Positions 6,771 to 26,517 of a stretch of 44,776 bases of DNA are shown here, one piece after another. Source of the stretch: an uncultured Thiotrichaceae bacterium (GTDB lineage Bacteria > Pseudomonadota > Gammaproteobacteria > SZUA-229); NCBI GenBank assembly GCA_964421315.1, contig CAYQXD010000003.1, positions 1 to 44,776 on the forward strand, read 5' to 3'. The notes beneath the pieces were generated by a model, which saw nothing but the letters and a program-made list of their open reading frames with translations, made no database searches and was not told the origin of the DNA. The number at the start of each line of letters is the position of its first letter. Positions within the stretch are counted from its first letter, which is position 1. Made by a program: the position numbers and the translations under genes.

Positions 6771-6773
6771 GTT

Positions 6774-9887: not shown

Positions 9888-10054
9888 CCAGGAGGCTGTC
9901 CGAGAATAGAGAGCCTACTGCAAATCCCATAAAGGTCATAATCTGAGCTTATTGAAATCGTTAAATAGCACAACTATTCGCCTCATTCAATAAACTCACC
10001 TTATAACCTTTCTGTGATTTTCGCTACGACTTCTATTCTCGGACAGCCTCCTGG
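9888..10054. repeat. 167-bp element bounded by a perfect 23-bp inverted repeat (ccaggaggctgtccgagaataga)
   Basis: The left arm is 9888-9910 and the right arm 10032-10054, an exact reverse complement. The right arm and about 36 nt of the interior encode the last ~22 residues and the stop of the P-type ATPase. Confidence 0.85.
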
Positions 10055-12752
10055 TTTCCCGGCTTCGCCGGAACCTTTTTTCCGCACCGATGACCAGATA
10101 GATGACCAGACCAACCGCCAGGATATACACCCAGTCCATAAAGCCGATAGGTGCTGTATGGAACAGTTTATTCATCAACGGCAGGTAGGTGAAGGCCAGT
10201 TGCGCCGCAGTCATGGCGGCGATGCCTACCCAGATCCAGGGATTGCTGAACAAGCCAAGCTGAAATATGGAAAATCGCAACGATCGGCAGTTCAGCAGGT
10301 AGAATGACTGTCCCACCGCAAACACATTGACCGCGATGGTGCGGGCTTCAGCTTCACTGGCACCCTGTAGCAGCGCCCACCTGAACAGACCGAAGCTACC
10401 GATCAGTAATAACAAGCCGACCAGTACAATGCGAAAAATCATTTCGCCACTGAGAATGGCGGTATCCGGTCTGCGTGGCAAACGACGCATAATACCTGGT
10501 TCACGCGGTTCAAAGGCTAAAGCAAGACCAAGTAACACGGCGGTGGTCATATTGATCCACAATGCCTGCACAGGCAGCACCGGCAATGGTTGCGCTGCCA
10601 TCACTGCGGCGATAATCACCAGCCCCTGACCGGCATTGGTGGGCAAAATCCAGGTGAGAAATTTGATCAGGTTGTCGAATACACCGCGACCTTCTTCCAC
10701 CGCTGCCTCAATGGTGGCGAAATTGTCATCGGTCAGCACCATGTCGGCTGCTTCTTTTGATACTTCGGTGCCGGTAATGCCCATGGCCACGCCAATATCT
10801 GCGCGGCGCAAAGCTGGCGCATCGTTAACCCCGTCACCGGTCATGGCAACCACTTCACCGTGGGCTTGCAGGGCTTCAACCAGACGCAGTTTTTGCTCGG
10901 GCGTTACCCGTGCAAAAACGGCAGTGCCAGTGGCAGCCTTGATCAGCTCGGCATCGGACATGACTTCCAGTTCACGACCACTCAGTACCTGCGGAATTTC
11001 GCCATCACTCAGGGTAACATCGAGACCAATCTTGCCGGCGATGGCAGCAGCGGTAATGGCGTGATCACCGGTAATCATTTTGACCCGAATACCGGCAGCC
11101 TGGCAGGCGCGTACCGCCTGTATCGCCTCTCCCCGTGGTGGGTCAATCATGCCCTGCAAACCAATAAAAACCAGCCCCTGATCAACATTCTCATGGTCAA
11201 TGCTGGTAGTATCCGCTGACACTGGCAGACGTGCGAAAGCCAGTACTCGCTGCCCCTTGCTGGCCATTGCATCTACCCTGGCATGCACGACATCTTTATC
11301 CAGTAGCTTGCTGCTTCCATCGGTTCCCATAATGGTATCGCAACGTTCCAGCATGCTCTCCACTGAACCTTTCAGGCAAACCACCGGGCGGTCGCCACCA
11401 TGAAGAGTCGCCATATACTGGTGTTGAGACTCAAAAGGGATGGTATCCAGCCGTGGGTAAAGATTCTGTTCCTGCTTACCATCAAGCTCAGCTTTGCTCG
11501 CCGCCACCAGCAACGCCCCTTCAGTAGGATCACCCTCGACCTTCCAACCTTCTTCACCCTGTTTAAGGACAGATTCATTACACAGCAGACCGGTGCGCAG
11601 CAGTTCGACCAGTGCTGTGTGCTTGCTGACATCCACTTTTTTACCGCTTTGCTGAATTTCACCGTGTGGTGTATAACCAATACCGCTAACTGCAAATTCT
11701 TCATCTCCCGCCCACAACTGCTGTACTGTCATCTGGTTACGGGTCAGGGTACCGGTTTTGTCCGAACAGATAACGGTGGTGCTGCCGAGAGTTTCCACCG
11801 TCGGCAGGCGACGAATGATAGCGTTGCGTTTTGCCATACGCGCCACACCGATGGCCAGAGTAATGGTCAACACTGCAGGTAAGCCTTCTGGAATCATCGC
11901 CACCGACAGGGCTACCGCAGCCATGAACAGATCAATCCAGCTATCGCCATGGTATAAACCGACCAGGAAAGTAATCGCCGCCAACCCTAAAATGGCGTAC
12001 AGCAACAAATGAGAAAAGCGCGCAATCTTGCGGGTTAGTGGTGTCGCCAGCACCTCGGCACTGGCGATAAGCTCGGAGATGAGTCCAATCTCGGTCGCAT
12101 CACCGGTTTCAGTGACCACGCCCACAGCGGTACCATAGGTCACCAGCGTGGACGAATAAGCCATATTCGTTCGCTCAGCCAGGATAATATTATGTTGCAG
12201 TACAGCCGATTGTTTTTCCACCGGCAGCGACTCTCCGGTCAGTGCAGATTCATCAATCTGTAAACTCCGGCTATGCAGCAGGCGCAGGTCAGCCGGCACC
12301 TTGTCGCCCGAGGTGAGCAACACGATATCGCCCGGCACCAGTTCTTTGGCATCGATGCGCTGCTTCTCACCAGCACGTAATACTGTGGTCTCGGTAGTCA
12401 GCGCACGAGACAGGGCTTCCAACGCACTCAAGGCCTTGCCTTCCTGCACAAAACCAATAATCGAATTGAGCAGCACCACACCAAAGATAACACCAGCATC
12501 CACCCAGGCACCAAGGAACAGCTTAATAACAACCGCTACCAGCAGGATGTATACCAGCGCCTGGTTGAACTGCAACAGAAATCGCAGCAGCGGACCCTGC
12601 CCTTTACGCTGAGTCAGTGCATTGGCACCAAAGTTTTGCTGACGGTTCTCTACCTCAAACCGATCCAGCCCTTTATCCTGATCGCTATCAAGCAGATCCA
12701 GTACTTCTTCCTGGGGCAGGTGATGCCAGTGTTTTTCCAGCAAGGTTTTCAT
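9996..12752 (-). CDS. P-type cation-transporting ATPase (type IIA, Ca2+/Mg2+-like)
   Basis: 918 aa with TGES, CSDKTGTLT, MITGDH, TGDGVNDAPAL and 10 predicted TM segments. Confidence 0.9.
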   Translation of the reverse strand: MKTLLEKHWHHLPQEEVLDLLDSDQDKGLDRFEVENRQQNFGANALTQRKGQGPLLRFLLQFNQALVYILLVAVVIKLFLGAWVDAGVIFGVVLLNSIIGFVQEGKALSALEALSRALTTETTVLRAGEKQRIDAKELVPGDIVLLTSGDKVPADLRLLHSRSLQIDESALTGESLPVEKQSAVLQHNIILAERTNMAYSSTLVTYGTAVGVVTETGDATEIGLISELIASAEVLATPLTRKIARFSHLLLYAILGLAAITFLVGLYHGDSWIDLFMAAVALSVAMIPEGLPAVLTITLAIGVARMAKRNAIIRRLPTVETLGSTTVICSDKTGTLTRNQMTVQQLWAGDEEFAVSGIGYTPHGEIQQSGKKVDVSKHTALVELLRTGLLCNESVLKQGEEGWKVEGDPTEGALLVAASKAELDGKQEQNLYPRLDTIPFESQHQYMATLHGGDRPVVCLKGSVESMLERCDTIMGTDGSSKLLDKDVVHARVDAMASKGQRVLAFARLPVSADTTSIDHENVDQGLVFIGLQGMIDPPRGEAIQAVRACQAAGIRVKMITGDHAITAAAIAGKIGLDVTLSDGEIPQVLSGRELEVMSDAELIKAATGTAVFARVTPEQKLRLVEALQAHGEVVAMTGDGVNDAPALRRADIGVAMGITGTEVSKEAADMVLTDDNFATIEAAVEEGRGVFDNLIKFLTWILPTNAGQGLVIIAAVMAAQPLPVLPVQALWINMTTAVLLGLALAFEPREPGIMRRLPRRPDTAILSGEMIFRIVLVGLLLLIGSFGLFRWALLQGASEAEARTIAVNVFAVGQSFYLLNCRSLRFSIFQLGLFSNPWIWVGIAAMTAAQLAFTYLPLMNKLFHTAPIGFMDWVYILAVGLVIYLVIGAEKRFRRSRETRRLSENRSRSENHRKVIR

Positions 12753-12856
12753 GTTTGTGTTACTCCGGTGTAAACCTGTCTATCCGTGTTATTCTTATGT
12801 GCGTTTATGAATAAGAGTATTGTGGCTCACAAATATAAAATTATAAGGAATATCAC

Positions 12857-14092
12857 ATGCAAAATCACCTTAACAATAATAATAGGAACCACTATAAATG
12901 GTCACTGATAATTCTATTAACCATATTCTTCACTGGCTGTAACGATAACACAGAGCGCTCCACAGAATCTAAAGCAGGTGATCTGGTCTCTGTGACTCAA
13001 TTATCGACACATAGCAAACAGACAATAATAACAGTCTTAGGCAATGTTGCAACTCAGATAACACCCGCTTATTCCGTCGACAACTACAAGGTAGTCTATA
13101 AGACAAAAGACACCAAAGGTAATTTAATCAATGTTTCAGGTTTGATGGCATTGCCGCAAAAGATAATGGCGGCAAGCAGTCCCAGACTCAGTATTCAGCA
13201 TGGTACGATTTTTCTTGATCAGCAAGCGCCTTCCTTCAATCATCAAGCTGGCTCTAACTCCGTAATCGCCGCCTCATTAGGCTTTATTGTTACCGCACCC
13301 GATTACATCGGTTATGGCGAATCGGCTGGTCAGACGCACCCGCATTCACACAAAGATACCCTGGCATGCGCGGGTATTGATTTATTACGTGCCAGCAAAA
13401 GCTGGCTTGAACAGCAACAAATTGCAGAAAACGGGCAGTTATTTATTGCAGGCTACTCTGAAGGAGGATATGCAACACTGGCAATGCAGAAAGTGATTCA
13501 GACGGAATTGTTCAATGAATTTACAGTAACCGCATCCGTTCCTGCCGCAGGTTCTTATGACCTGACGCGGGCATCTAAAAGAGACCCTGATGAACCAGCT
13601 TTTACCTTCGTGTTTATTGCCTATATCATCAAGGCTTACGATGAAGTTTATGGACTAAACATACTGGCTGATGCGATTCGCCCTGAATATTTAGATGTAG
13701 TGAATACACATTTTGATGGCACACGTTCTGGCGCACAGATCAGCGCATTATTGCCACCAACTGATTCCCCTGCCGACAGCTTTTTCAACCGAGCTTTTTT
13801 GCAAAAATTTAATAATGGCGAACTACCCGCATTAAGTAATCGAATTGCAGAAAACAATCTGCATGACTGGATTCCAACCGCAGCAACCCGTTTCTTTCAG
13901 GCAAGAGAAGACAAGATTGTTGCTTTTGAGCCTGTGGTTCAAATGGTACAGACCATGCGAGGTAATGGCGCAACTGATATTGAACTGATTGAGTGCTATG
14001 CAGGCGGATTAGCGACGACACATGATAATTGCTTCTTTCCGGCATTGATTTATTCAGCTGGGTTTTTCTCAACATTGGCCAGGGATTTATAA
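12857..14092 (+). CDS. Secreted alpha/beta-hydrolase (lipase/esterase-like) lipoprotein
   Basis: A signal peptide with a lipobox (FFTGC) and a nucleophile elbow GYSEGG. Confidence 0.6.
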   Translation: MQNHLNNNNRNHYKWSLIILLTIFFTGCNDNTERSTESKAGDLVSVTQLSTHSKQTIITVLGNVATQITPAYSVDNYKVVYKTKDTKGNLINVSGLMALPQKIMAASSPRLSIQHGTIFLDQQAPSFNHQAGSNSVIAASLGFIVTAPDYIGYGESAGQTHPHSHKDTLACAGIDLLRASKSWLEQQQIAENGQLFIAGYSEGGYATLAMQKVIQTELFNEFTVTASVPAAGSYDLTRASKRDPDEPAFTFVFIAYIIKAYDEVYGLNILADAIRPEYLDVVNTHFDGTRSGAQISALLPPTDSPADSFFNRAFLQKFNNGELPALSNRIAENNLHDWIPTAATRFFQAREDKIVAFEPVVQMVQTMRGNGATDIELIECYAGGLATTHDNCFFPALIYSAGFFSTLARDL

Positions 14093-14191
14093 GAGGGTAT
14101 CTCTATTAATCTGACATCTGCCGCTTTTAGGTGATCGTAGTATAAAAACAAGATAGAAGTAAAATTCGACATCCCGTTAATAAATAACTCC

Positions 14192-15988
14192 TTAATAAGC
14201 AAGAAGAAACACAAACACCATGAGCAATATTAAAACCAATGTAATAGCAACCATCCAGCGTTGCAACTGGTTTTCACCTGCACCTATCATTAACCTTAAT
14301 CCGGAACGATACTGAAGCCGATTCCAGGCAGCCATCAGGGATAATTGCCAGCCTGGTAAAATGTTAAAAGAGAATGCGTAAAATGATGCCATAAAACAAT
14401 GCAGGGGTTTTTCTACGATAAGCAGAATATCACCCGCAGGAATGCGAAATTGGCGGGGGAACCATAAGTTCCTGATGAACGATTGCCGGGCAAACCAGAA
14501 GGCAGAAAACGCAACACCCACACCCAGAACAAGCGGCCATAATGCGCTAATTACAGTCTGCTCTGACCAGGGGTTAGTGTCAGAATCTATTGAGATAAAC
14601 CACGGGTTAAACAATACCACCAGCAATAAAACACTCCACGATAACCACATAACACTAGCAGCCGACTTTGCTGGTGAGCAGGCAATTTTTTTGCCCTGTT
14701 GCCAGACCAGATACAAAAAACGCAACATAAGAATGCTGGTTGCTACCGAACTCAATGACCACAAAATTAGCAGCGCGTCACTCCAGGGCAATGATGTTGA
14801 TGTGGCTGATAGCTTGAGAAAGTGCTTTGCCATCATGCCGCTAGTCCACGGTGCGCCAGCCAGTGCCAGTGCCGGTAGCAACAGACCCGCCAGCAACAAA
14901 TAGCGCTGAACTTTTGATGCCAACTGCACGGCAACAAAACCCACACCAAGAAACAAAGCACCCTTGGCAATGCCGTGATGCAGGGCAAAAATCAACACAG
15001 CAGTTAATAGCAGTGGCCATCTATCCGGCGCAATCAGACCCAGACCAACAACCGTGGTCATTATCCCCATAATGCTAATACTGGAATAAGCCAGCACAAC
15101 TTTTGCATTGCTTTGTAACACTCCGATAAGCACAGCATAAAAAACCGCCACCATGCCAGCAGCCATCATTATCCCACCCCATACCGGTAATGCCGTTTCG
15201 CCTAATGGCAATACTCGCAACCAGCCCAGTAAACCCGCCGCTATCATTGCCCCCGAAAGCACTGCACTGGCGGGGGGCGGCGCCACTGGATGCGCTAACG
15301 GCAACCAGACATGCAAACCGATTACGCCAGCCTTGATGCCAAAACCAAGCAGCACCAGCCCTATAATCCAGTTACGCGATGCTGAATCTGCCACCGCTGA
15401 TTGCACAGGTTGAAATTCAATACTGCCTGCCGCCTGCGCTGCCATGATAAAAGCAGCAAACAACAGCACCTCGCCCACCACCACCAGAATGATAGTGACC
15501 CGCCCTGCCCGTAACGCTTGTGCTGTACCATCAAACACCACCATACCGTAAGAGGCAAAACTCATCAGAGCAAAAAAACTGTAAAAAGTGACCATATCCT
15601 GGGCAAGAATCAGCCCGAGATTACCTGCCATCGCCAACAGAAACCAGATAAAAAAACCTGATTTTTCCAGATTTAACAAACGCTCAGAAAAATAAGCCGT
15701 GCTATAAATACCTGCTGCCAACCATAGCAATGAGGTAAAAAACAGAAATATTCTCGCTGTCTCATCAAAACCAAAAAAGCTGCCGAGTAGCAGCCAGGGC
15801 AATTCCACGCTAATGCCGGGAGTCATCAACACAGACATTACAAGTGCCGGCAGTGCCGCCCAGGGTGCGAGCGCGAATACCAACCGGCGCAAACAACCAG
15901 ACATTAAGCCAATCGCCAGCAATAAGGGCAACCCCGGCACTAGCAACATAACCAGCAGCATAACCAGCGTGGAATCGAAGCTATTCAT
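14192..15988 (-). CDS. Divergent NuoL/M/N-like (MrpD-like) antiporter subunit, fourth in tandem, with a C-terminal extension
   Basis: 598 aa with a proton-antiporter-M-like core (GIKAGVIGLHVWLPLAHPVAPPP). The position of the TM5 Glu is Ala (FYSFFALMS). The C-terminal amphipathic segment plus final TM (ENQLQRWMVAITLVLILL) resembles the C-terminus of the preceding subunit. Confidence 0.7.
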   Translation of the reverse strand: MNSFDSTLVMLLVMLLVPGLPLLLAIGLMSGCLRRLVFALAPWAALPALVMSVLMTPGISVELPWLLLGSFFGFDETARIFLFFTSLLWLAAGIYSTAYFSERLLNLEKSGFFIWFLLAMAGNLGLILAQDMVTFYSFFALMSFASYGMVVFDGTAQALRAGRVTIILVVVGEVLLFAAFIMAAQAAGSIEFQPVQSAVADSASRNWIIGLVLLGFGIKAGVIGLHVWLPLAHPVAPPPASAVLSGAMIAAGLLGWLRVLPLGETALPVWGGIMMAAGMVAVFYAVLIGVLQSNAKVVLAYSSISIMGIMTTVVGLGLIAPDRWPLLLTAVLIFALHHGIAKGALFLGVGFVAVQLASKVQRYLLLAGLLLPALALAGAPWTSGMMAKHFLKLSATSTSLPWSDALLILWSLSSVATSILMLRFLYLVWQQGKKIACSPAKSAASVMWLSWSVLLLVVLFNPWFISIDSDTNPWSEQTVISALWPLVLGVGVAFSAFWFARQSFIRNLWFPRQFRIPAGDILLIVEKPLHCFMASFYAFSFNILPGWQLSLMAAWNRLQYRSGLRLMIGAGENQLQRWMVAITLVLILLMVFVFLLAY

Positions 15989-15991
15989 AAA

Positions 15992-17308
15992 TCAGGAAGC
16001 TAAGCCGATAAACACCACGGCAATGCCCAGCAACAAAAACAGGGTGACTGCAAAGACCCAACTTTGCAGCGCACGCTCGCTGAAATCCAATGCGCTTTGC
16101 AATGCACGGATACGTAACCAGAGACGGCTCACTTGTGCCAGCCACCAACTGCGCCAGCGGGGCAAAGTTTCATAACCTGCCATAGCCGCCCACGCCAGCA
16201 CCATGCCGGGGTAACGCTCAAACCACAAACTCGCCTCGTCTTCGTCTGCCGAATGCATTGCAGGGCAATGGCTTCTCGACCCTAACCGGACAATGGTTAT
16301 ATTCAATATCGCTAAAGCAAATACCAAAAGAATAATAAAAAGATAGGCTAAATCTCCGTAACCATGCCATATAGCACGATTTGACAGACCTGTGCCTATG
16401 GCTACGAAAAACAGACCGACGGCTAAAATAGTGGCATAAGCGGGTAATGTTTTTAATCGCGCTATTTTCTGTGCAAGCAAAATAACATAAAACATAGCGT
16501 AGAATACAGTGACCAGGCCCAAACCCTGGATAATTAGACCCAGCGTAGGTGCAATGATTTCACCCAGCGGCAGCCAGCGCACAAGTCCCAGCAGTGCGAT
16601 GGCAACAGGAACACCACCCAGCAACACAGCCACGGGTAAGCTGATTGAACGATAAGCCAGTGGCAACCAGAAAGTTAATGGCCAGATACCTGCCTTGAGC
16701 GCAAAACCTGAAATAACCATCGACAGATACAGTCCCAGCGAAGGTGACTGCGCCATTGCCTGCACCGCCGCTGTAAAACTCAGGTCATCGGTGTTTGCCA
16801 AGACGATCAACAACGCTTCAAACAGTGCCAGATCTGACAGCACCAAAAGCACCAGGTAGGCACGTCCGGCGCGGCGCGCCACATCATCCCTGCCGGATAC
16901 CAGCAAACCATAAAACCCATAACCCATTAATGTTGAAAAGACAAAAAAACCGACCTGGTCGGTTGCCAGTACCACACCAAGATTGCCTGCCATGGTGAGC
17001 AGAAAAAAGCGCGTAAATCGGTTGCTAGCAGTTTGCCCGTCGAATTTTTGTATCACACTAGCGGCAACGAGCCAAAGTATCACTAAAATCGCCAGCAACC
17101 ATCTTGATACGCCGCCATTACTCAGGCCAGTACCGAACAGCAACCAGGGTAATTCGACAGAATAAGTCAGCGGAACGCTTACCACAATAATGGCAGGTAA
17201 TAACGCAAGATAGCGGAACCATGGCCGACACGGGTACAATGCCAGCAGCAGCAGCAACGGCAGCCCCGGCACTGACAGCAATAACAAGGTGCCTACTATG
17301 TCATTCAC
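15992..17308 (-). CDS. Divergent NuoL/M/N-like (MrpD-like) antiporter subunit, third in tandem
   Basis: The start is trimmed to GTG 17308, giving a GTGA overlap with the upstream stop. The core is LKAGIWPLTFWLPLAY. There is no acidic residue at the TM5 Glu position (FFVFSTLMG). The C-terminus is ERALQSWVFAVTLFLLLG. Confidence 0.7.
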   Translation of the reverse strand: MNDIVGTLLLLSVPGLPLLLLLALYPCRPWFRYLALLPAIIVVSVPLTYSVELPWLLFGTGLSNGGVSRWLLAILVILWLVAASVIQKFDGQTASNRFTRFFLLTMAGNLGVVLATDQVGFFVFSTLMGYGFYGLLVSGRDDVARRAGRAYLVLLVLSDLALFEALLIVLANTDDLSFTAAVQAMAQSPSLGLYLSMVISGFALKAGIWPLTFWLPLAYRSISLPVAVLLGGVPVAIALLGLVRWLPLGEIIAPTLGLIIQGLGLVTVFYAMFYVILLAQKIARLKTLPAYATILAVGLFFVAIGTGLSNRAIWHGYGDLAYLFIILLVFALAILNITIVRLGSRSHCPAMHSADEDEASLWFERYPGMVLAWAAMAGYETLPRWRSWWLAQVSRLWLRIRALQSALDFSERALQSWVFAVTLFLLLGIAVVFIGLAS

Positions 17309-18801
17309 GGGGCATATTCCAGCGTGGTAATAAATCGCGCCCACTCCAGCGGGCTGAACGGTGCGGATGCCAGCACACCCAGGATTACCACCAGTATGGC
17401 TGTGAATACCGGCGGCAGCAATAACGCCAATGCGGTTTCATAGCGTCCAAAACAACGTTCACCTGGCCAGTCACCACTCGGCTCTTTGAACCAGGCTACA
17501 TATAAAACGGGCAAAAAGTAAGCGGCATTGAGCAGCCCACTGCCTGCCAGCACAAAAATCACCCAGTCCTGACCAGCTTCCAGTGCGCCGAGGCCCAGAT
17601 ACCATTTACTGATAAACCCTGCCAATGGCGGTGCGCCGATCATGCCGAAAGCCCCGATGGTAAAGGCGGCCATAGTCCAGGGCATGCGTTGTCCGACTCC
17701 ATTCATCTCACTGACTTTATGAATGCCCAGTGTCTCGGCAAGGTTACCCGCGCAGAAAAACAAAGTAATCTTCATTACCCCCTGATGCACCAGATGCACC
17801 ATGCCGCCGATGGTTGCGATGGGACCGACGATGGCGATACCGAGAACAATATAAGAGACCTGGCTGACCGTGGAAAATGCCAGTCGGCGCTTCAGGTTGT
17901 CCTGAAACAGTGCCCGCATCGAAGCATAGATGATGGTCGCAGCTGCCACTATCGCCAACGGCAATGTCACCCCCAGGCTGGCACTAAATTCGATACCAAA
18001 CACATCGTAGACCACCCGTATAATGCCGAAGGCACCCGCCTTTACAACCGCCACTGCATGTAATAATGCGGTAACCGGTGCCGGAGCGACCATTGCTGCT
18101 GGCAACCAGCCATGCAGAGGAATTAATGCTGCCTTTACCCCCAGACCCGTAATTAATAGTACAAATATAACGATTAATGCCGGATGCTGTGAACTGTCCA
18201 GAGCAGACAAAAAACCACGGGCAGTAAATTCCAGTGTACCGGTAATGGTATATAACCAGATAGTACCAAGCAGTAATAAAGCGCCACCAGCGAGGGTATA
18301 AATAAGATAAGTGCGACCGGCTTTGCGTGCCGCCTCGGTTCCCCGATGCACAATTAGCGGGTAGGTTGCCAGGGTCAGCAGTTCATAAAACAGCAGGAAG
18401 GTAATCAGATTGCCAGCCAGCGCGACACCCACCGTTGCAGTCACACAGAGACTGAAAAAGCCAAAGAATCGACTGCGATGCGGCGAATCCTCCAGATAGC
18501 CAATGGCATATATCGTGGTCAGCATCCACAGACCAGCAGAAAGTGCCACAAACAACATAGACAGGGCATCGGCTCGTAATACCAGATCCAGCCCGGGCAA
18601 CAGTGGCAAACGGGTTTCATAGTGATGGCCGTTAAAAACCCCCCACAGCATGAAAGCCACCAGTGCCAGCTTAAGCAAGGCAGCCCCCAGATTTAGCCAG
18701 ACACGAGTCTTAACCCGGTTTTCTGCCAGGGTAAAAATCACCAACCCCGCAATCAGTGAACTAAGTACAATCAATAATGGCAACCAGGCATCCCAGTTCA
18801 T
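17305..18801 (-). CDS. mnhD: Mrp/Mnh subunit D-like (NuoM/N family) antiporter subunit
   Basis: 498 aa with FYELLTLATYP (TM5 Glu) and GVKAALIPLHGWLPAAMVAPAP. There is an ATGA overlap with the upstream gene. Confidence 0.8.
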   Translation of the reverse strand: MNWDAWLPLLIVLSSLIAGLVIFTLAENRVKTRVWLNLGAALLKLALVAFMLWGVFNGHHYETRLPLLPGLDLVLRADALSMLFVALSAGLWMLTTIYAIGYLEDSPHRSRFFGFFSLCVTATVGVALAGNLITFLLFYELLTLATYPLIVHRGTEAARKAGRTYLIYTLAGGALLLLGTIWLYTITGTLEFTARGFLSALDSSQHPALIVIFVLLITGLGVKAALIPLHGWLPAAMVAPAPVTALLHAVAVVKAGAFGIIRVVYDVFGIEFSASLGVTLPLAIVAAATIIYASMRALFQDNLKRRLAFSTVSQVSYIVLGIAIVGPIATIGGMVHLVHQGVMKITLFFCAGNLAETLGIHKVSEMNGVGQRMPWTMAAFTIGAFGMIGAPPLAGFISKWYLGLGALEAGQDWVIFVLAGSGLLNAAYFLPVLYVAWFKEPSGDWPGERCFGRYETALALLLPPVFTAILVVILGVLASAPFSPLEWARFITTLEYAP

Positions 18802-20240
18802 GCTGTGCTACCTGCAAAAGGAAAACCGATATCCATCAATGCCAGCATCCAGGGAGCAAAAAAGCCCAGAGCGATAGCAAGCAATGCCATAACCAATGCC
18901 GTCCATTCCATCCTTCTGGGTACTGCCCTGGACTCATGGAGCAAATCAGACTGAGTAAAAGCAAAACCAATTACTTTAAACACATATGCGCCAGTCAGCA
19001 ATCCACCAACAATCAGCATGATGCCCCACCACCATTGACCTGAACCGATAGCAGCTTCCAGTAACAACCATTTTCCAATAAATCCACCACTGGGTGGCAG
19101 CCCCATAAGGCTGACTCCCGCCAGCGCAAAGGCACTAAGAGTCAACGGTAAATGCCGCGCCACGCGATCAAGATCGGCAATACGATCATGACCACCGTAA
19201 AACAGGATATTACCCGCAGCCATGAACATCGCGGTCTTGGCGACCGCATGGACTAATAGCAGATAAAACGCAGCCTTCCAGCCGATAATGCTGGCCAGCG
19301 GAAACGCCAGAAACAGATAACCGACCTGCACCACAGTCGAATAAGCGACCAGCAATTTAAGCCGTGTCTGACGCAGTGCCTGCACTCCACCCCACAGTAC
19401 TGCAGTCGCACCGAGTAGACCCAGTAACTGAGCCGGTGCCACAGAAGTCATCGGAAAAACATCCAGCCACAGACGCAACAGAATATAAAATGAGGCTTTT
19501 ACCACCAGTGCCGACAACAGCGCACTCACGGGTGCCGGGGCACTGGAATGCGCAGCAGGCAACCAGAAATGCAGAGGGAACAGCGCGGTCTTGAGCAACA
19601 GGCCGGCAGTCATCAAGCCTATGGCTGCCCACACCGCCGGTGTTGACTCTACCCGCTGCGCCAATATCACAATATCGACACTGCCAACACTGTGGTAAAG
19701 CAGAGCAACACCCATAAGATAAAACAATGAACCCAACAGGCTAACCAGCAGATAGCGCATGGCTGCAGTTAAAGCATCAGCACCACCAGACAATGCCACC
19801 AGTGCCACTGCTGCCAGAGCCATCAGTTCCAGCGTGACGTAAAGGTTGAAGATGTCGGCAGAGAGAAACAGGGCATTTAACGCCGCCCACAGGAACATCC
19901 ACAGCGGCCAGAAATGTTTTGCCCTGTCCGGTTGAAAGTAACTGCTAGAATAAATGCTGACAGCCAGACCCACGACAGCAGTCACTATCAGCATTAGCAG
20001 GCTCAAACCATCAGCATAAAGATCAATGCCCAGAGGGGCATCCCAGCCGCCGATGGCGTAGCGTTGTGCGCCTTGCGTTACCATCTGCGCACTCAGTCCA
20101 GCGACGCTGATAACCGTTGCCAATGCGGTAAACAGTGCCAACTGCACACTGTTCCGAGGCCATAAAAAGCAGCTCATCACAGCGACTAATGGCAGTAAAA
20201 TAACCACTACTACCCAGGGTATATCTAGTATTACCTGCAC
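18798..20240 (-). CDS. Mrp/Mnh subunit D-like (NuoN/M family) antiporter subunit
   Basis: 480 aa with YVTLELMALA (TM5 Glu) and LLLKTALFPLHFWLPAAHSSAPAP. Confidence 0.8.
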   Translation of the reverse strand: MQVILDIPWVVVVILLPLVAVMSCFLWPRNSVQLALFTALATVISVAGLSAQMVTQGAQRYAIGGWDAPLGIDLYADGLSLLMLIVTAVVGLAVSIYSSSYFQPDRAKHFWPLWMFLWAALNALFLSADIFNLYVTLELMALAAVALVALSGGADALTAAMRYLLVSLLGSLFYLMGVALLYHSVGSVDIVILAQRVESTPAVWAAIGLMTAGLLLKTALFPLHFWLPAAHSSAPAPVSALLSALVVKASFYILLRLWLDVFPMTSVAPAQLLGLLGATAVLWGGVQALRQTRLKLLVAYSTVVQVGYLFLAFPLASIIGWKAAFYLLLVHAVAKTAMFMAAGNILFYGGHDRIADLDRVARHLPLTLSAFALAGVSLMGLPPSGGFIGKWLLLEAAIGSGQWWWGIMLIVGGLLTGAYVFKVIGFAFTQSDLLHESRAVPRRMEWTALVMALLAIALGFFAPWMLALMDIGFPFAGSTA

Positions 20241-20297
20241 TATTCTAACCTTAAAAAACCAGTTGAATCGTAGCGAGGATGGCTAAGATGCTGAAGG

Positions 20298-20376
20298 TTA
20301 TGGTTTTTTCTGGGTGTTTTGGCTTTGCTCATAGTCACTCTACGGGTGAAGTCAAAACACCCAGAAAAAACCATAA
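20298..20376. repeat. Perfect 24-bp inverted repeat with a 31-nt loop, between mnhC and the first D-like gene
   Basis: ttatggttttttctgggtgttttg (20298-20321) is the exact reverse complement of 20353-20376. Confidence 0.85.
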
Positions 20377-20387
20377 GATTTAGTGTA

Positions 20388-20762
20388 TTAGACATACGCA
20401 GTAGGTTTAACTGATTTTTTAAGGTTTAACGACTCTTTTGCTAATGGCTCTGCAGGCAAGGACTCATCATCAAGTTCGGCACGACCCGTTTTGGCTTTGA
20501 CTCGCAACATCAACGCCAGCGCCAGCGCGGTGGCCGATACCGCTACCACAATGCCGGTAATCACCATGGCATGTGGTACAGCATCGGGTGTTGCACCTTC
20601 GGTGCGAGCTGCCAGTGCAACTAATACCAGGAATACGCCACTGCCCATAATATTAAGGCTAAGAATTTTGCGTAACAAATGCGGATAAATAATCAGCGCA
20701 TACAATCCTAGAGAGAACAGACCGACACCAACCAGTGCGTAGAGAAAAGCAGGATTCATCAT
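20388..20762 (-). CDS. mnhC: Mrp/Mnh subunit C (NuoK-like)
   Basis: 124 aa with three TM segments and typical MnhC size. Position is between the B and D subunits. Confidence 0.75.
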   Translation of the reverse strand: MMNPAFLYALVGVGLFSLGLYALIIYPHLLRKILSLNIMGSGVFLVLVALAARTEGATPDAVPHAMVITGIVVAVSATALALALMLRVKAKTGRAELDDESLPAEPLAKESLNLKKSVKPTAYV

Positions 20763-21493
20763 TAACTATGATCTATGGATGCATCTGTGGCTGCATTTGG
20801 CTCACCACCAAGAAATAAAGCCGCCAGGGTAACGCCAATAGACAAGGTGGCGGCAGCTTCAATCAGTAAAATCAGCACAGCGGAAAATTCCGGCGGATAC
20901 TGCAGAAAATTACCCACCAGCAGCATGGATGCCAAACCCACGATAACAAACACCAGCATACCCGCCACCAGAGTAAATCGTAACGGCAAACCCGCTAACT
21001 TTGGCTCAGGACACCAGCCGCTTAGTAGCAACAACACACCCACCGCCGCCAGTACCGAACCGGCCTGAAAAGCACCACCCGGTGCATGTGCACCGACCCA
21101 CAATAGATAACCAGCAACCAGGATGAATATCGGAACCAGCAGGCGCGACAACATATCCAGCACTTCTCCCGGAGGTGACTGCTGTTGTTGCAAGCGGCTT
21201 TGTGTGGTGCCACCAAGCGACCAGACAGCTAACAGTGCCAACAACAACACGCCCAGTTCCAGCAAGGTGTCATACGCCCTGAAATTAAGCAGCACGGCAG
21301 TAACCGGGTTACTGACACCACTGATTTCAAGATTGACGGCTACAGCTGTACTCAACCCTGATGCCTGTGGTGGCAGTGATAACACAGCATACGCCAGCCC
21401 CGCAGTAAAAACACATAACAACACCATCAACAATAATCGAAATGGCAGCAAATGTTTATTGTTCTCAGTTTTCAACTTTGCCTGCCTCGCCAT
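20762..21493 (-). CDS. mnhB: Mrp/Mnh subunit B-like (MbhE-like)
   Basis: NPVTAVLLNFRAYDTLLELGVLL (MnhB domain) and GAHAPGGAFQAGSVLA. The start may lie downstream of 21493. Confidence 0.75.
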   Translation of the reverse strand: MARQAKLKTENNKHLLPFRLLLMVLLCVFTAGLAYAVLSLPPQASGLSTAVAVNLEISGVSNPVTAVLLNFRAYDTLLELGVLLLALLAVWSLGGTTQSRLQQQQSPPGEVLDMLSRLLVPIFILVAGYLLWVGAHAPGGAFQAGSVLAAVGVLLLLSGWCPEPKLAGLPLRFTLVAGMLVFVIVGLASMLLVGNFLQYPPEFSAVLILLIEAAATLSIGVTLAALFLGGEPNAATDASIDHS

Positions 21494-21770
21494 TCTTCTG
21501 GCCTTCTTTCAGGGCTTTTTTCTGCTGCCCATCTGAGCCAAGCCTGGCCAATGTTGCCAACAACAGCGCACCCGTCAGACCTGCACCAATGGTGGCTTCA
21601 GCCAGAGCTACATCCGGCGCATCAAGCCGCACCCAGGCCAGTGCCATCAATAACCCAAAGGCGATAAACAGCACAATAGCGCGGAATAGATCTGGGCTAG
21701 ACAGTGCCTGCCAGGCAAGCCACAGCAGGGTTAAACCTAAAACAGCATCAAATAACAGCAGTAAATTCAT
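21465..21770 (-). CDS. DUF4040/MbhD-like small membrane subunit (equivalent to the C-terminal part of MrpA)
   Basis: 101 aa with three TM segments (APDVALAEATIGAGLTGALLL). Position is between the G and B subunits, as in Mbh-type modules. Confidence 0.6.
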   Translation of the reverse strand: MNLLLLFDAVLGLTLLWLAWQALSSPDLFRAIVLFIAFGLLMALAWVRLDAPDVALAEATIGAGLTGALLLATLARLGSDGQQKKALKEGQKNGEAGKVEN

Positions 21771-21819
21771 CGCTCCTGCGCTCCCCGCCTATACCTGCGT
21801 AGTAGTGCATCCATGCACG

Positions 21820-22119
21820 TCATCGCTTCCACAATTTAATACCTCGTTGCCGTGCCGCTGTAGCAACCAGGTGAGCAACACTGGCTCCAGCAAGCAGTAC
21901 CAATAACCAGATCAACAACAGCTTGCCCACCACTGCCCATGATTCTGCCTGCAAGGCGAGTCCAAGTATTACTAATCCAAGGCCCACGTTATCGGCCTTG
22001 GTTAATGCATGCAGGCGAGTATAAACATCTGGAAAGCGCAACAGACCCACCGTTCCCGCAAGAAAAAATACCGCTCCGGCAATCAACAATACCGCAGTGA
22101 GAAGGTCAGTCATCAACAT
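21820..22119 (-). CDS. mnhG: Mrp/Mnh subunit G
   Basis: GTVGLLRFPDVYTRLHALTKADNVGLG is the MnhG signature. Confidence 0.8.
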   Translation of the reverse strand: MLMTDLLTAVLLIAGAVFFLAGTVGLLRFPDVYTRLHALTKADNVGLGLVILGLALQAESWAVVGKLLLIWLLVLLAGASVAHLVATAARQRGIKLWKR

Positions 22120-22375
22120 GATTCACCACCCAGACACGACGTGCGAAAGCAACGGCTGTTACTACCGCCAACAGTGCAAATACCAGTGCCACATCACGTA
22201 ATGCTGACTGCTCCAGTGCCTGCGCCAATAAAAGTAAACAGGCAACTGCCGTGGTGCCAAATAATTGTGCGGTCAGCATACGGTCTGCGGCTGTGGGGCC
22301 ATGCATAATCCGCCACAACCCCGCTACCAGCGTTAACAGAAGAAAAACGGCTACCCCTAAATACAATGCATTCAC
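22106..22375 (-). CDS. mnhF: Mrp/Mnh subunit F
   Basis: 89 aa with RIMHGPTAADRMLTAQL, typical of MnhF/PhaF. Confidence 0.75.
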   Translation of the reverse strand: MNALYLGVAVFLLLTLVAGLWRIMHGPTAADRMLTAQLFGTTAVACLLLLAQALEQSALRDVALVFALLAVVTAVAFARRVWVVNHVDD

Positions 22376-22388
22376 AGCACTTTACTCC

Positions 22389-22883
22389 TCACTCGATTAA
22401 ATCCATTAACTTCAGTGCAAACACCTGCGCCACATGTTTCTCTACCATGTTCAATTCTGAGGCGAAACCAGCCATTTGGTCGAGTACATGCACATGCAGG
22501 TATTCTGCGTCCAGCTCAGCGCTTAATGTGCCTGGCAGTAAACTCACCACATTTGCCATAAAAACCCGTGGCAGACCCGGCGGTAGCCGCCAGCGGTAAG
22601 CCACTATTTCTGGTGAAATCGGTAGCCGCGGGTGCAACGCTCGCCTGGCGACGTCAATACCACCACACAAAGAACGCCAGAGAAAAAAAGGGATGAATCG
22701 CAATATTCCTGATAAGGATAACGGAATACTCGGCAGCAACAATACGCTGGCAAACGTCGCTAAAACAATCACCGGCACACCAATAAACCAGGAATCTGTC
22801 GCAGTTTCTGTAATCACCCACCATAATATTGCGAACAGGACGATGCGAAAACTGACGGCAGAAAATGTTGTTGAAATTGTCAT
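22389..22883 (-). CDS. mnhE: Mrp/Mnh subunit E
   Basis: 164 aa with VVSLLPGTLSAELDAEYLHVHVLD, an MnhE-like motif. Confidence 0.75.
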   Translation of the reverse strand: MTISTTFSAVSFRIVLFAILWWVITETATDSWFIGVPVIVLATFASVLLLPSIPLSLSGILRFIPFFLWRSLCGGIDVARRALHPRLPISPEIVAYRWRLPPGLPRVFMANVVSLLPGTLSAELDAEYLHVHVLDQMAGFASELNMVEKHVAQVFALKLMDLIE

Positions 22884-22948
22884 AAGCGAGGTAGTCGTTA
22901 TTGCATAAACATGTGCATTGGCAATTGTAGTGTGGGCATGCTTTCACA

Positions 22949-23947
22949 TTAGCAGATACGCGGCAGCGGATCATCTTCCAGCTCTTCGAGTATGCGCTCA
23001 CCACCAATAGCGGTTTCCATTAACACATATGATATTTCTGAATCAATAAAACCGATAATTGCCGCATCTTTGCCTTCCTCAAGCGCTTGCCAGGCTGTCA
23101 GTAGTGCTTGCGATTGCGTCGGTTCCACCACAGCAACCACCCGCCCTTCGCAGGCGAGATACATGGGGTCGTAACCCAGCATGTCACATACAGACTGCAC
23201 CGGATCACGCACTGGCAGTTTGCTCTCTGACAATCTGACCCCCATAGAAGTTGCACGAAATAATTCCGAGCAAACAGTGGCAATGCCACCCCGGGTTGGG
23301 TCACGCATAAAACGCAGACCTTTATGTTTCATCGCAGCGGTTGTTAGATTTAATACGCTGGCCGCATCCGATTGAATATCGCCACGCAAACCAAATTCTT
23401 CTCTCGCCAACATTACCGCAATGCCGTGATCGCCAACCGGACCACTGACAATAATGGTATCTCCATGTTGAATATTTTTCATCGACATGACATGGCCGGC
23501 ACGAATACCAACACCGGTGGTGGCAAGATACAACCCCCCGCCTTCACCACGGCGTAAAACTTTGGTGTCGCCACAAACCACTTTGACACCAATTTCTGCT
23601 GCGGTTTCTGCCAACGTTTTTATAATGCGCTCCAGGGTGGCAATTTCCAGACCTTCTTCGATGAAGGCATTCAGGCTTAAATACTTTGGGATAGCACCGG
23701 CCACCGCAAGGTCATTGGTGGTGCCATGCACTGCAAGTGAACCAATGTTGCCGCCGGGGAATTCTAGCGGCTGCACGGTAAAACCATCGGTAGTAAACAT
23801 TACATCACCATCAAGTATTATCGGCACGGCATCGGCTTGCACATCTAAATCCGGATTAGCCAGGTGACGTGCAAAAATCTCTTCGATAAGTTCGCGCATG
23901 TAACGACCGCCATTGCCGTGTGCCAGTGAGATGTGTGTGTCTTGCAT
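22949..23947 (-). CDS. hypE: [NiFe] hydrogenase maturation protein HypE (carbamoyl dehydratase)
   Basis: 332 aa with an AIR-synthase-like fold and the C-terminal PRIC motif. Confidence 0.95.
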   Translation of the reverse strand: MQDTHISLAHGNGGRYMRELIEEIFARHLANPDLDVQADAVPIILDGDVMFTTDGFTVQPLEFPGGNIGSLAVHGTTNDLAVAGAIPKYLSLNAFIEEGLEIATLERIIKTLAETAAEIGVKVVCGDTKVLRRGEGGGLYLATTGVGIRAGHVMSMKNIQHGDTIIVSGPVGDHGIAVMLAREEFGLRGDIQSDAASVLNLTTAAMKHKGLRFMRDPTRGGIATVCSELFRATSMGVRLSESKLPVRDPVQSVCDMLGYDPMYLACEGRVVAVVEPTQSQALLTAWQALEEGKDAAIIGFIDSEISYVLMETAIGGERILEELEDDPLPRIC

Positions 23948-23973
23948 TTTTATTTACCTGCTTGTTTTTTTAC

Positions 23974-24061
23974 CACAGAGAACACAGAGGGCACAGAGAA
24001 AAATTGGGTTATAGTAATTTGCGCGAAGCACAAACAATAAAAAAACTCTGTGTTCTCTGTG
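23974..24061. repeat. Palindromic element with perfect 16-bp arms (cacagagaacacagag) between hypF and hypE
   Basis: The left arm at 23974-23989 is the exact reverse complement of the right arm at 24046-24061. The left side also has the internal reiteration cacagag-aacacagag-ggcacagag. Confidence 0.85.
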
Positions 24062-24078
24062 TCTGTAATAAAAGATTT

Positions 24079-26517
24079 TCATCTATTAAACCCATATTCC
24101 ATAACCTGGCCGAAACTAATACCCGCATCATTAACTGGTATCAACTCAGGCAGACAAACATCAAAACCTTCGTCCTCCAATAAAACCATGGCTCGCTCTG
24201 TTAATACCCGGTTCTGAAACACGCCACCGGAAAAACTCACTGTATTCACCCCGTGTTTGTCACGAATAATTTTTGCCTGCTGCAACAGCGTGTGCGCCAA
24301 CGATTGATGAAACAAAGAAGCACGCTTGCTAAGGCTTAATGTAGAATCTAACATAACAGCAATTAATGGCTGCCAGTTGCTTATCAATATATTCTCATTC
24401 TCTGCTAACTCCAGTTCTATATAGTCACTGGATTTTTCGCACAATGCTTCAAGTTCCATCGGACCCTGCCCCTCAAAACTAGCCATCTTGCGGATACCGG
24501 TTAAGGCAGCAGCAGCATCAAACAGACGACCAACCGAAGTGGTTTGTGGTGCATTAATTTTTCGTAACCATGCCTGCCGTAATACTGAATGCAACAGTGG
24601 GTCTTTTTCGGGAATATCGTCATAGTTCTGCCCCACTTCCCAGCATAATGCTGCAGCGCTTCGCCAGGGTTGTCGTCCGGCTTTATCACCACCGGGCAGA
24701 TTAAAACTTCGCATACTGGCCACGCGTAACCATTCACCCGGTTTACCAAGAAACGTTTCGCCACCCCACAGCATGCCATCTTCACCGTAACCAACACCAT
24801 CCCAGGTGAATACTATAATCGCATCGTCAGCCTTTATAACTTGCTGGCATTCGTAATAAGCGGCAGAAGCATGAGCATGGTGGTGAAACACCGTTTGCAC
24901 AGGAAGGTTCTGTTTGTTTGCCCAACGTGTGGTTGTATAACCAGGGTGTGAATCGCAAATTAAACGTTTTGCTTTAACACCATAAAGTTTTTGTAAATCA
25001 TTAATGGTATTTTCAAAAACGTCGACACTGCGAGCCGTGTCCATTTCGCCTATATGCGGTGAAATAATGGCGCGGTTTTTCCATGCCAGGGTGATGGTGT
25101 TTTTCATCTGTGCACCGACGGCAAGAACAGCATGTGGCAATTCAAACGGTAAAGTCAGTTCTATTGGCGCACAGCCACGACCGGTACGAATGGGTCGTGG
25201 TTTACCGGCAATGGTTCGATACACTGGATCATCCGCCGGTCGCTGTATCGCTCGGTTATGATGCAAACAGGCATCAGCCACATGAGCCAGTCGTTTTTCA
25301 ACATCACTGTTTTTTATTAAAACCGGCTCGCCACTTATGTTTGCCGAAGTAACCACCAGTGGCCTGGCAAAATCATTTAACAGCAGATGATGCAACGGAC
25401 TATATGGCAACATCATACCCACTTCATCTAATCCCGGTGCAATCTGATCGGATAAAACAGAATGAGAATTTTGCATAACCGAGGAAACATTCAATACACT
25501 GTCATCTCGACCAGCGGGAGAGATCTTGTTCCGCCGTTGCTTAAGATCTCTCCCGCTGGTCGAGATAACAATATCTGAAAATTCACTTTGTTCAGAGTCT
25601 TTATTTTTAGCCACCTGTAAAATGGGCCTGGCAGCTTGTAACAAAAATATTTTATCATTTTCACTTAATGTTAGTGATTTTTCTGCAAGCTCAAATGGAT
25701 TATTAAGCGGTGCCGGGAACATAATCGCCAGCGGTTTATCAGGTCGAGGTTTTTTCTTCCGTAAACAGACAACCGCTTCTGTATTTGTTGCATCACACAT
25801 CAGGTGATAACCACCGATTCCTTTTACCGCAACGACTTTGCCATCACGCAACAGGTTTACCGTCTTTTTCAGCGCTGCTTTATTTTCCTTGATTACGATC
25901 TCGTCCATATGAAAAACAAGTGAAGGCCCACACACTGGACAGGCAACAGGCTCAGCGTGAAAACGCCGATTAAACGGATCTTCATATTCAACTAAACAGG
26001 TCGGACATAATTCAAAATCGGCCATAGTGGTATTGGCACGATCATAAGGCAGGCTTTTAATCAAAGTGTAACGCGGCCCGCACTGAGTGCAGTTGATAAA
26101 CGGGTATTGATAACGCCGGTCTGATGGGTCGTTTAATTCTGCAAGACAGTCATCACAGAGGGTAAGGTCGTTTGGAACACTAATGTTAGCCTGTTCCTGA
26201 TGTTCGCTGTCAAGAATACAAAAAGTTTTTAACTCACCAGCGGCAGTTTGTTTATCTGATTCGAGTTTGGGTTTTGCTAATGGTGGTTTTTTATCGAACA
26301 GGTCTAAAACAAAGCTATCAAGATTTTGAGACTGACCCTGAACAAAAATTTCGACAGTACCGACACAGTTTTTTACCCAGCCAGTAAGTTTATTCTCGAT
26401 GGCAAGCCGATAAACAAAAGGCCGAAAACCAACACCCTGCACCTGTCCGGATAATACAATCTGCCTGGCAGAGGTTTCAGGTTTTGTTTTCTGTTTACTA
26501 TTTAAATAAATAGCCAT
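24079..26517 (-). CDS. hypF: [NiFe] hydrogenase maturation carbamoyltransferase HypF, carrying an in-frame palindromic-element insertion
   Basis: 812 aa with an acylphosphatase domain (VQGVGFRPFVYRLA), two zinc-finger pairs (CDDC..CTQCGPRY, CPTC..CPVCGP), a YrdC-like domain and a Kae1-like domain. Confidence 0.95.
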   Translation of the reverse strand: MAIYLNSKQKTKPETSARQIVLSGQVQGVGFRPFVYRLAIENKLTGWVKNCVGTVEIFVQGQSQNLDSFVLDLFDKKPPLAKPKLESDKQTAAGELKTFCILDSEHQEQANISVPNDLTLCDDCLAELNDPSDRRYQYPFINCTQCGPRYTLIKSLPYDRANTTMADFELCPTCLVEYEDPFNRRFHAEPVACPVCGPSLVFHMDEIVIKENKAALKKTVNLLRDGKVVAVKGIGGYHLMCDATNTEAVVCLRKKKPRPDKPLAIMFPAPLNNPFELAEKSLTLSENDKIFLLQAARPILQVAKNKDSEQSEFSDIVISTSGRDLKQRRNKISPAGRDDSVLNVSSVMQNSHSVLSDQIAPGLDEVGMMLPYSPLHHLLLNDFARPLVVTSANISGEPVLIKNSDVEKRLAHVADACLHHNRAIQRPADDPVYRTIAGKPRPIRTGRGCAPIELTLPFELPHAVLAVGAQMKNTITLAWKNRAIISPHIGEMDTARSVDVFENTINDLQKLYGVKAKRLICDSHPGYTTTRWANKQNLPVQTVFHHHAHASAAYYECQQVIKADDAIIVFTWDGVGYGEDGMLWGGETFLGKPGEWLRVASMRSFNLPGGDKAGRQPWRSAAALCWEVGQNYDDIPEKDPLLHSVLRQAWLRKINAPQTTSVGRLFDAAAALTGIRKMASFEGQGPMELEALCEKSSDYIELELAENENILISNWQPLIAVMLDSTLSLSKRASLFHQSLAHTLLQQAKIIRDKHGVNTVSFSGGVFQNRVLTERAMVLLEDEGFDVCLPELIPVNDAGISFGQVMEYGFNR
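25501..25569. mobile_element. Perfect copy (B) of the ~69-bp palindromic element, inserted in-frame in hypF (MITE-like)
   Basis: atctcgaccagcgggagagatct (25504-25526) is the exact reverse complement of 25544-25566, with a 17-nt loop. It translates as ISTSGRDLKQRRNKISPAGRD within HypF. Confidence 0.8.

Follow-up and report, generated by a model that had tools for sequence, protein, structure and literature searches.

The arm of complex I that pumps protons is considered to have evolved from multisubunit Mrp antiporters. Group 3 of these systems is defined by the absence of mrpA and the presence of mrpD only, sometimes in several copies (PMC8415708). The stand-alone Mrp of Pyrococcus furiosus, which uses Na+, has the order mrpEFGBB'CD (PMC8415708), and the cyanobacterial group 3 cluster mrpCD1D2EFGAB of Aphanothece halophytica is described as a working Na+/H+ antiporter (Fukaya 2009, cited in PMC5703873). 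Similar clusters have been annotated as MrpEFGBBCDD in the sulfur-oxidising symbiont of Solemya velum (PMC4287430), as MrpEFGBCD1D2D3 in Verruconatronum (PMC13274419) and, in Ca. Nitrospira alkalitolerans, as an mrp cluster with two extra NuoM/NuoL-like genes after mrpD (PMC7784846). Here we analyse an operon of this kind, located at positions 14192-22883 (minus strand) of a 44,776-nucleotide (nt) stretch, hereafter the window, of contig CAYQXD010000003.1 from an uncultured Thiotrichaceae bacterium (assembly GCA_964421315.1). The operon fits the group 3 definition, having no mrpA and several mrpD-type antiporter-like genes. The locus belongs to this known class; what is new is the clade formed by its two distal antiporter-like subunits, called D3 and D4 in the following, and the recurrent form in which both are encoded in tandem. 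A preliminary description of the window had presented the arrangement as a non-textbook one; an order without mrpA is, however, part of the published definition of group 3 (PMC8415708) and is seen in the Solemya symbiont (PMC4287430) and in Verruconatronum (PMC13274419).

The ten genes of the operon lie head to tail and were all assigned by Pfam; the scores of the MrpB-, C-, D-, E-, F- and G-type genes, found here in one cluster, are above the gathering cut-offs. The first gene is mrpE (MNHE, PF01899, E 4.9e-24; 22389-22883), followed by mrpF (MrpF_PhaF, PF04066, E 1.8e-10; 22106-22375), mrpG (PhaG_MnhG, PF03334, E 3.3e-27; 21820-22119), a gene encoding an MbhD-like protein (formerly DUF4040; PF13244, E 1.7e-19; 21465-21770), an MbsE-like fusion of MbhE and MnhB (PF20501 and PF04039; 20762-21493), hereafter B, and mrpC (Oxidored_q2, NuoK-like; PF00420, E 1.9e-18; 20388-20762). 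Next come four consecutive genes for NuoL/M/N-type proteins with a Proton_antipo_M domain (PF00361): D1 (480 amino acids [aa]; E 9e-59; 18798-20240), which is of the MrpD/NuoN class, D2 (498 aa; E 8e-60, plus PF00662; 17305-18801), D3 (15992-17308) and D4 (598 aa; 14192-15988), a short and a long subunit, respectively, of the terminal type. The longest open reading frame (ORF) of D3 extends to 17344 (450 aa); a GTG start at 17308, giving 438 aa, agrees with the N-termini of its homologues. The D1/D2 junction is an ATGA overlap and, provided that D3 starts at this GTG, the D2/D3 junction is a GTGA overlap; B and mrpC overlap by 1 nt, and D3 and D4 are separated by 3 nt. The preliminary description had already recognised the four consecutive antiporter-like genes, their mostly overlapping stop and start codons and a gene order mirroring the membrane arm of Mbh/Mbs complexes, all of which are borne out by the Pfam order E-F-G-MbhD-B-C-D1-D2 and by these junctions. 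Among the ten proteins, only MrpG (TIGR01300) scored above an NCBIfam equivalog cut-off. A scan of 12700-24200 for promoter and terminator consensus sequences gave counts not above those of shuffled sequence and was uninformative on transcription units.

Among the ORFs of the window, Pfam detected none in which an antiporter module (PF00361) is fused to an MbhD/MnhB-type domain, so that mrpA is not present as one gene, in agreement with the earlier view that a full-length MrpA is lacking. The MbhD-like protein and the first half of B together cover, as separate genes, positions 627-892 of the NCBIfam MrpA model NF009288 (627-686 and 699-892, respectively), so that they correspond to the C-terminal domain of MrpA and to MrpB. 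The 14-helix module of MrpA is probably represented by D2. The motif LLHAVAVVKAG in transmembrane helix (TM) 8 of D2 carries a His+Lys signature of the MrpA/NuoL/HyfD type, and D2 has no lateral helix. The claim that no NuoL-like MrpA N-terminal domain is encoded was therefore not borne out, in view of this signature and the PF00662 match of D2 and of the MrpA/NuoL-like fold predicted for D4 over its full length. Judging from these assignments, the product of the operon is probably a cation/proton antiporter of the stand-alone group 3 Mrp (CPA3) type, with the parts of MrpA spread over separate genes.

The TM5 position of the antiporter-like subunits was aligned in two ways: by pairwise HMMER alignments of D3 and D4 to the solved MbsH, MbhH, MrpA and NdhD4, and by a MAFFT alignment with NuoL/M/N and HyfB/D/F of Escherichia coli and MrpA'/MrpD of Sphingomonas, taken from annotated records. 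The reference columns were checked on E. coli NuoL (E144, D178, K229, H254, K342 and K399). The two alignments are concordant and uphold the pattern proposed earlier: the TM5 residue is Glu in D1 and D2, Thr in D3 and Ala in D4, and the TM7 Lys is retained by all four proteins. D1 exhibits the canonical residues of the MrpD/NuoN class (TM5 Glu, TM7 Lys, TM8 Lys, TM11 His/Lys and TM12 Lys), and D2 has TM5 Glu, TM7 Lys, His and Lys in TM8, Lys in TM11 (with Gln at the His position) and TM12 Lys. In D4, Ala at the NuoL E144 column is accompanied by Glu173 in TM6, Lys219/His226 in TM7, Ala at the TM8 position, Lys296, His338/Lys342 in TM11 and Lys388 in TM12; there is no His at the H254 column and no equivalent of Arg175. 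Apart from TM5, the channel residues are all retained in D4, which is probably a working proton module. D3 has Asp171 and Glu176 in TM6, Lys217 in TM7, Ala at the TM8 position and Leu/Leu in TM11, and the TM12 region is absent. Of the canonical set it thus retains only the TM6 Asp and the TM7 Lys, the charges of TM8, TM11 and TM12 being gone, and its PF00361 match, limited to profile positions 1-220 of 294, falls short of the full canonical core. The NuoL D178 column in TM6 is occupied by Asp in D3 and by Glu in D4; among the references it holds Gly, Ser, Thr or Val, NuoL alone being also acidic. Residue 224 of the window D3 (about nt 16673-16675), in the TM7 'LHxWLP' motif, is Thr, and His is found there in 115 of 120 homologues; with this TM7 His lost, the window copy is, by its sequence, more degenerate than most of its homologues.

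These residue patterns extend to the two families at large. Homologues of D3 (529 at E <= 1e-5) occur in several phyla, and the best 120 were analysed, together with the best 120 homologues of D4. None of these 240 proteins has an acid at the TM5 position, which is occupied by Thr (79), Ala (20), Val (14), Ser (5), Gly (1) or a gap (1) in the D3 family and by Ala (81), Thr (27), Ser (9), Gly (1) or gaps (2) in the D4 family. The TM6 acid at the NuoL D178 position is present in 239/240, as Asp in 119 of the 120 D3 homologues and as Glu in all 120 D4 homologues. The TM7 residue is Lys (106) or Arg (14) in the D3 family and always Lys (120/120) in the D4 family. Moreover, H226, K296, H338, K342 and K388 are each found in 120/120 D4 homologues, with a variable TM8 position (A 57, K 35, S 26), and in the D3 family D171 is conserved in 119/120 and E423 and W429 in 118/120. 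In NuoL of E. coli complex I, R175, D178, K229 and E144 form an interface network in which K229/D178 has been discussed as a gating ion pair (PMC9271201, PMC11938283). As judged from the alignments, the absence of the TM5 Glu is a stable, family-wide trait that goes together with an acid on TM6, the adjacent helix. Since TM5 is non-acidic in 240/240 proteins and the TM6 acid is conserved, the 'loss' of this Glu corresponds neither to a shift within TM5, such as the displacement by one turn considered in the preliminary description, nor to a simple inactivation. The TM6 Asp/Glu and the TM7 Lys of D3 and D4 could form an interface ion pair like D178/K229 of NuoL.

The D3 and D4 families are closely related to each other. 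Their profiles align with a probability of 100% (hhalign, E 1e-65) over the whole of D3, with aligned C-termini and one large gap of about 150 residues, corresponding roughly to D4 340-490, which indicates that D3 is a D4-type paralogue from which the segment between TM11/12 and TM15 has been deleted. The deleted segment is retained in long D3 variants of 505-580 aa (loci L026, L028, L029 and L030 of our scan; proteins P0100, P0106, P0116 and P0120), where the position of the TM12 Lys is occupied by Gln or Arg; from their sequences, these variants seem to be intermediate between the short D3 and the D4 type. In the neighbour-joining tree built from the conserved core, D1 is placed with MrpD, and the D3 and D4 families are sisters in a clade apart from NuoL/M/N, HyfB/D/F, MrpA' and MrpD. 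Their closest curated relatives in NCBIfam, far below the cut-offs, are HyfB and long hydrogenase membrane subunits. Taken together, the profiles, trees and residue patterns indicate that D3 and D4 form an undescribed and widespread clade of predicted NuoL-like terminal subunits.

The internal deletion of about 150 residues and the missing TM8, TM11 and TM12 charges would also be expected if D3 were a copy of D4 that is decaying and no longer has a function, as would the missing TM7 His of the window copy and its weak AlphaFold2 (AF2) model (predicted local distance difference test [pLDDT] score 61.6). This explanation is highly improbable given the homologues in several phyla and the near-invariance of D171, E423 and W429 among the best 120; furthermore, D3 is the sole terminal subunit in most operons of its family, and its reading frame is intact and translationally coupled. 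We reject D3 as a pseudogene on its conservation among homologues. D3 is more likely a connector or clamp, as it appears to have kept the interface pair and lost the second half-channel. The 'four-pump Mrp' of the preliminary description therefore holds as regards the four antiporter-like genes, two of them with an altered charge pattern and a C-terminus resembling a lateral helix, and 'four pumps' is an overstatement, D3 being internally deleted and having lost the TM8, TM11 and TM12 charges.

The AF2 model of D4 (pLDDT 71.8, predicted template modelling score 0.71) exhibits a 14-helix core and TM15, with helices at 476-501, 521-559 (a 39-residue long helix) and 564-597 (the terminal one). 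Foldseek matched this model best to MrpA (7qru_A) and to NuoL/ND5/NdhF chains, over about 630-650 columns; MrpD-type chains match over about 530. In the weaker D3 model, about 360 columns fit antiporter cores and are followed by a 56-residue C-terminal helix, of which the first part is strongly amphipathic and the last 22 residues are hydrophobic. A C-terminal motif, E..LQ.W..A.TL, is conserved in both families and aligned between them in the profile-profile comparison, which substantiates the common amphipathic segment and terminal TM described earlier. It corresponds to an amphipathic stretch followed by a hydrophobic helix; in D4, amphipathicity is confined to short segments. The D4 segment 'GENQLQRW' resembles 'SENGYLRWY' of NuoL in the MAFFT alignment, which is a lead only.

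A scan of one genome per GTDB species retrieved 61 loci with a D3 relative, in which the order E-F-G-MbhD-B-C-D1-D2-D3 is found wherever enough sequence is present. Their hosts are sulfur-oxidising and other Gammaproteobacteria, Zetaproteobacteria, Nitrospinaceae and one Thermodesulfobacteriota isolate. D4-type proteins of about 585 aa terminate an otherwise identical operon in Sulfurovum, in a Kiloniellales genome, on a metagenomic contig and on a plasmid of Sinorhizobium sojae. Three types of operons can thus be distinguished: type a with D3 only (39 loci, and 10 further ones whose contigs are too short for a following D4 to be excluded), type b with D4 only (4 loci) and the D3-D4 tandem, present on at least six contigs (the window and loci L003, L004, L027, L070 and L071). 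D4 follows D3 in only 2 of the 37 loci that have at least 2 kb downstream. In the D2 protein tree the three operon types are interleaved, which suggests that the terminal genes have been gained or lost repeatedly.

Some of these loci show further peculiarities. The contigs of L003 (labelled Bathyarchaeota) and L004 (labelled Opitutaceae) encode proteins mostly 53-82% identical to those of the window (72-82% for D1 and D2) and are probably mis-binned; the window operon otherwise matches gammaproteobacterial operons. At L028, a second, divergent E-F-G-MbhD-B-C-D1-D2 operon (12088-17165; 30-50% identity) directly follows the first on the same strand. L067, located on plasmid pT173d of Ensifer canadensis (5966-15191), is a complex-I cluster with two extra antiporter-like genes between nuoK and nuoM, one showing 47% identity with D2 in the trimmed alignment of the core (45.8% in tblastn) and the other encoding 586 aa with the TM7 Lys replaced by Asn.

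From the distribution and the residue patterns, we tentatively propose that D3 and D4 are plug-on terminal modules of Mrp, gating by a TM6-carboxylate/TM7-Lys pair, each with its own lateral helix and anchor, which have been gained and lost repeatedly; in the tandems they would belong to one four-module complex with two lateral helices and an arm longer than that of canonical complex I. We consider this proposal in its entirety as plausible but somewhat short of probable. The chief competing reading takes D3 and D4 not for parts of one four-module chain but for alternative ends of two complexes, ...D1-D2-D3 or ...D1-D2-D4, differing in stoichiometry or regulation, much like the interchangeable NdhD/NdhF pairs of cyanobacterial NDH-1. 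Such an arrangement would agree with the single terminal gene found in most genomes (types a and b) and with the same kind of C-terminal helix and anchor on both proteins, which might compete for one docking site. The tight coupling of the tandem genes, with the 3-nt gap in the window and a 4-nt D3/D4 overlap in L070, rather favours equimolar co-production, and NDH-1-type alternatives are usually encoded in separate operons, so that we regard two alternative complexes as rather unlikely.

As the most likely mechanism we propose a Na+(K+)/H+ antiporter powered by the proton-motive force, whose proton arm is modular and can be extended. We infer an assembly order in which MrpE/F/G, with B and C, would form the Na+(K+) end, and D1, D2 and then the terminal subunits would form a chain of proton-conducting modules. 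D1 (MrpD class) and D2 (with its MrpA-class TM8 signature) would be the canonical proton modules; D4 would be a working distal module gated through its TM6 Glu and TM7 Lys, and D3 a connector or spacer in which the clamp and the interface pair alone are retained. The distal subunits would provide the lateral helix and anchor helix of MrpA, and their C-terminal long helix and last TM could clamp back over neighbouring subunits. Proton influx along the chain, driven by the proton-motive force, would be coupled electrostatically, via the central charged axis, to cation export. As regards stoichiometry, extra modules could raise the H+ per Na+ ratio, which would be useful at low proton-motive force or at high external pH and salt. 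If so, cells could tune their H+/Na+ ratio by adding modules.

Several observations weigh against this picture. The trees are neighbour-joining trees of small samples. The C-terminal parts of the D3 and D4 models have low confidence (pLDDT about 45-60), which makes the 'lateral' orientation of their helices a putative one. The hhalign alignment of the D4 family with E. coli NuoL ends at residue 457, and a phmmer sequence search with the C-terminal 124 residues of D4 against the PDB gave no meaningful match; with no C-terminal sequence homology to the NuoL lateral helix found, the terms 'lateral helix' and 'anchor' are used here on the grounds of architecture only. Finally, hypE ends 65 nt upstream of mrpE on the same strand, and the operon may be co-transcribed with the hyp genes here.

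The latter point raises the question of a hydrogenase partner. The module could be the membrane arm of a redox-driven Mbh/Mbs-like complex whose catalytic partner, e.g., a hydrogenase, is encoded elsewhere: its order matches that of mbs (A-B-C-D-E-G-H-H'), the curated proteins most closely related to D3 and D4 are, as said, HyfB and long membrane subunits of hydrogenases, hypB, D, F and E lie directly upstream of mrpE on the same strand, and an Isp-type NiFe hydrogenase is encoded 8 kb from the operon on the opposite strand (hynS-isp1-isp2-hynL, 30.7-35.6 kb). This complete set consists of hynS (30752-31849), a gene for a 219-aa protein with no Pfam match, presumably isp1, a gene for an HdrD-like CCG/Fe-S protein (isp2) and hynL (33833-35569); hypA (28657-29040), hypC (29230-29454) and a HycI-type maturation protease gene (29748-30281) are located nearby. 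The enzyme has its own partner subunits, Isp1 and Isp2, and HynS is the only NuoB-fold (PF01058) protein of the window, where a Pfam search of all ORFs of at least 150 aa found neither a NuoH/MbhM-like gene nor an MbhJKLN-type (NuoB/C/D/I-like) set.

The neighbourhoods of the related operons point in another direction. Among the 31 loci with at least 3 kb upstream, hyp genes adjoin the operon in 2, CPA2/TrkA_N exchanger genes in 9 and P-type ATPase genes in 7, one or the other of these transporters being adjacent in 16; type b operons (Sulfurovum, Kiloniellales, Sinorhizobium) have unrelated neighbours. Co-occurrence with hyp or hydrogenase genes, for which the preliminary description had proposed a survey of neighbourhoods, was thus not found as a general feature, and the link to a hydrogenase is rejected on these counts and on the missing NuoH-like gene of the window, a redox-driven arm being very unlikely. 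In the window, D4 is followed by a convergent lipase-like gene and, further downstream, by genes for a type-II P-type cation ATPase (9996-12752, minus strand), below every NCBIfam cut-off with a PMR1-type Ca2+ ATPase as best match, and for a CPA2/TrkA_N exchanger (8161-9855, minus strand). One or both of these transporters also stand beside the operon in L002, L006, L014-L017, L020, L022, L026, L056 and L070, which suggests a conserved cation-homeostasis island. In 20 of 40 related loci, e.g., L002 (4126-5247) and L070 (2479-3462), a tandem universal stress protein (Usp) gene separates mrpE from mrpF, the window not being among them; in L070, moreover, a PsiE gene stands between MbhD and B. 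The consistent associates of the operon are cation-homeostasis and stress genes, not hydrogenases.

Further genes lie elsewhere in the window. Genes for a polyunsaturated fatty acid synthase (a PfaC-like protein with FabA domains, a PfaD-like enoyl reductase and a phosphopantetheinyl transferase) occupy 39389-44580 on the minus strand, the contig ending inside the cluster. An overlapping pair of 100 aa and 140 aa (36007-36728, minus strand), resembling VapB/VapC (PIN) toxin-antitoxin systems by sequence, sits between the hydrogenase genes and a kinase-like gene. Overlapping ORFs at 2502-4273 (minus strand) correspond to a ferric-reductase-type membrane protein, a separate FAD/NAD-binding protein and a c-type cytochrome, and look like a split NOX/FRE-like oxidoreductase.

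The transfer of force from module to module and the roles of the TM5-Glu/TM7-Lys pair and of the lateral helix are still debated, and the present operon family supplies natural variants of relevance to this debate. D4 would represent a fully conserved type of module without the TM5 Glu and with the NuoL-type TM6 carboxylate, and D3 its truncated sister, with only the interface pair and the clamp kept. With such variants one could examine whether coupling can be relayed by the interface ion pair by itself, and operons with D3, D4 or both at the distal end could show whether ion stoichiometry is set by module number. In current annotations, genes for D3 and D4 carry the labels 'formate hydrogenlyase subunit 3' or 'complex I subunit 5 family'; these genes do not encode hydrogenase subunits. 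The class of system is known, and nothing in the locus indicates machinery of a new kind. Homologues of complex I to which a pumping subunit has been added have reportedly been described (by Chadwick et al. in 2018), so that the addition of modules is not new in principle.

Among the described systems, the clusters of Verruconatronum, Ca. N. alkalitolerans and the Solemya symbiont have the same or a very similar order, with extra antiporter-like genes after mrpD; they are known from genome annotation, as Na+/H+ antiporters, and their extra subunits were not analysed there. In the literature we found no paper analysing these subunits, their charge pattern or the four-gene version. Group 3 Mrp systems share with the window operon the absence of a full-length mrpA, the MbhD/MbhE/MnhB-type proteins in place of the MrpA C-terminus and MrpB, the order E-F-G-B-B'-C-D (in Pyrococcus) and the possible presence of several mrpD-like genes. 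The window operon differs in having four antiporter-like genes, the last two from a separate clade, whose products lack the TM5 Glu and have a TM6 carboxylate and a predicted C-terminal long helix plus anchor. The MBS complex of P. furiosus shows the same gene order (MbsA-B-C-D-E-G-H-H'; subunit table in PMC8415708), with MbhE and MbhF fused as in MbsE and with a distal, longer MbsH' that carries a TM15-16 lateral-helix element. D3 and D4 have MbsH and MbsH' among their best matches, in sequence as well as in structure. In contrast to MBS, the window has no MbsJKLMN-type catalytic module and has two extra distal subunits, and the charge pattern of D3/D4 is different. D4 is distinguished from NuoL, ND5 and MrpA by the absence of the TM5 Glu, of the TM8 His and of an Arg175 equivalent, and by a shorter long helix (about 40-50 residues). 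Going by its model, D4 would resemble these proteins in the 14-TM core and, in the part of low confidence, in TM15, the long helix and the terminal TM; it also shares the acid at the NuoL D178 position, combined with the TM7 Lys, and keeps the His/Lys of TM11 and the Lys of TM12.

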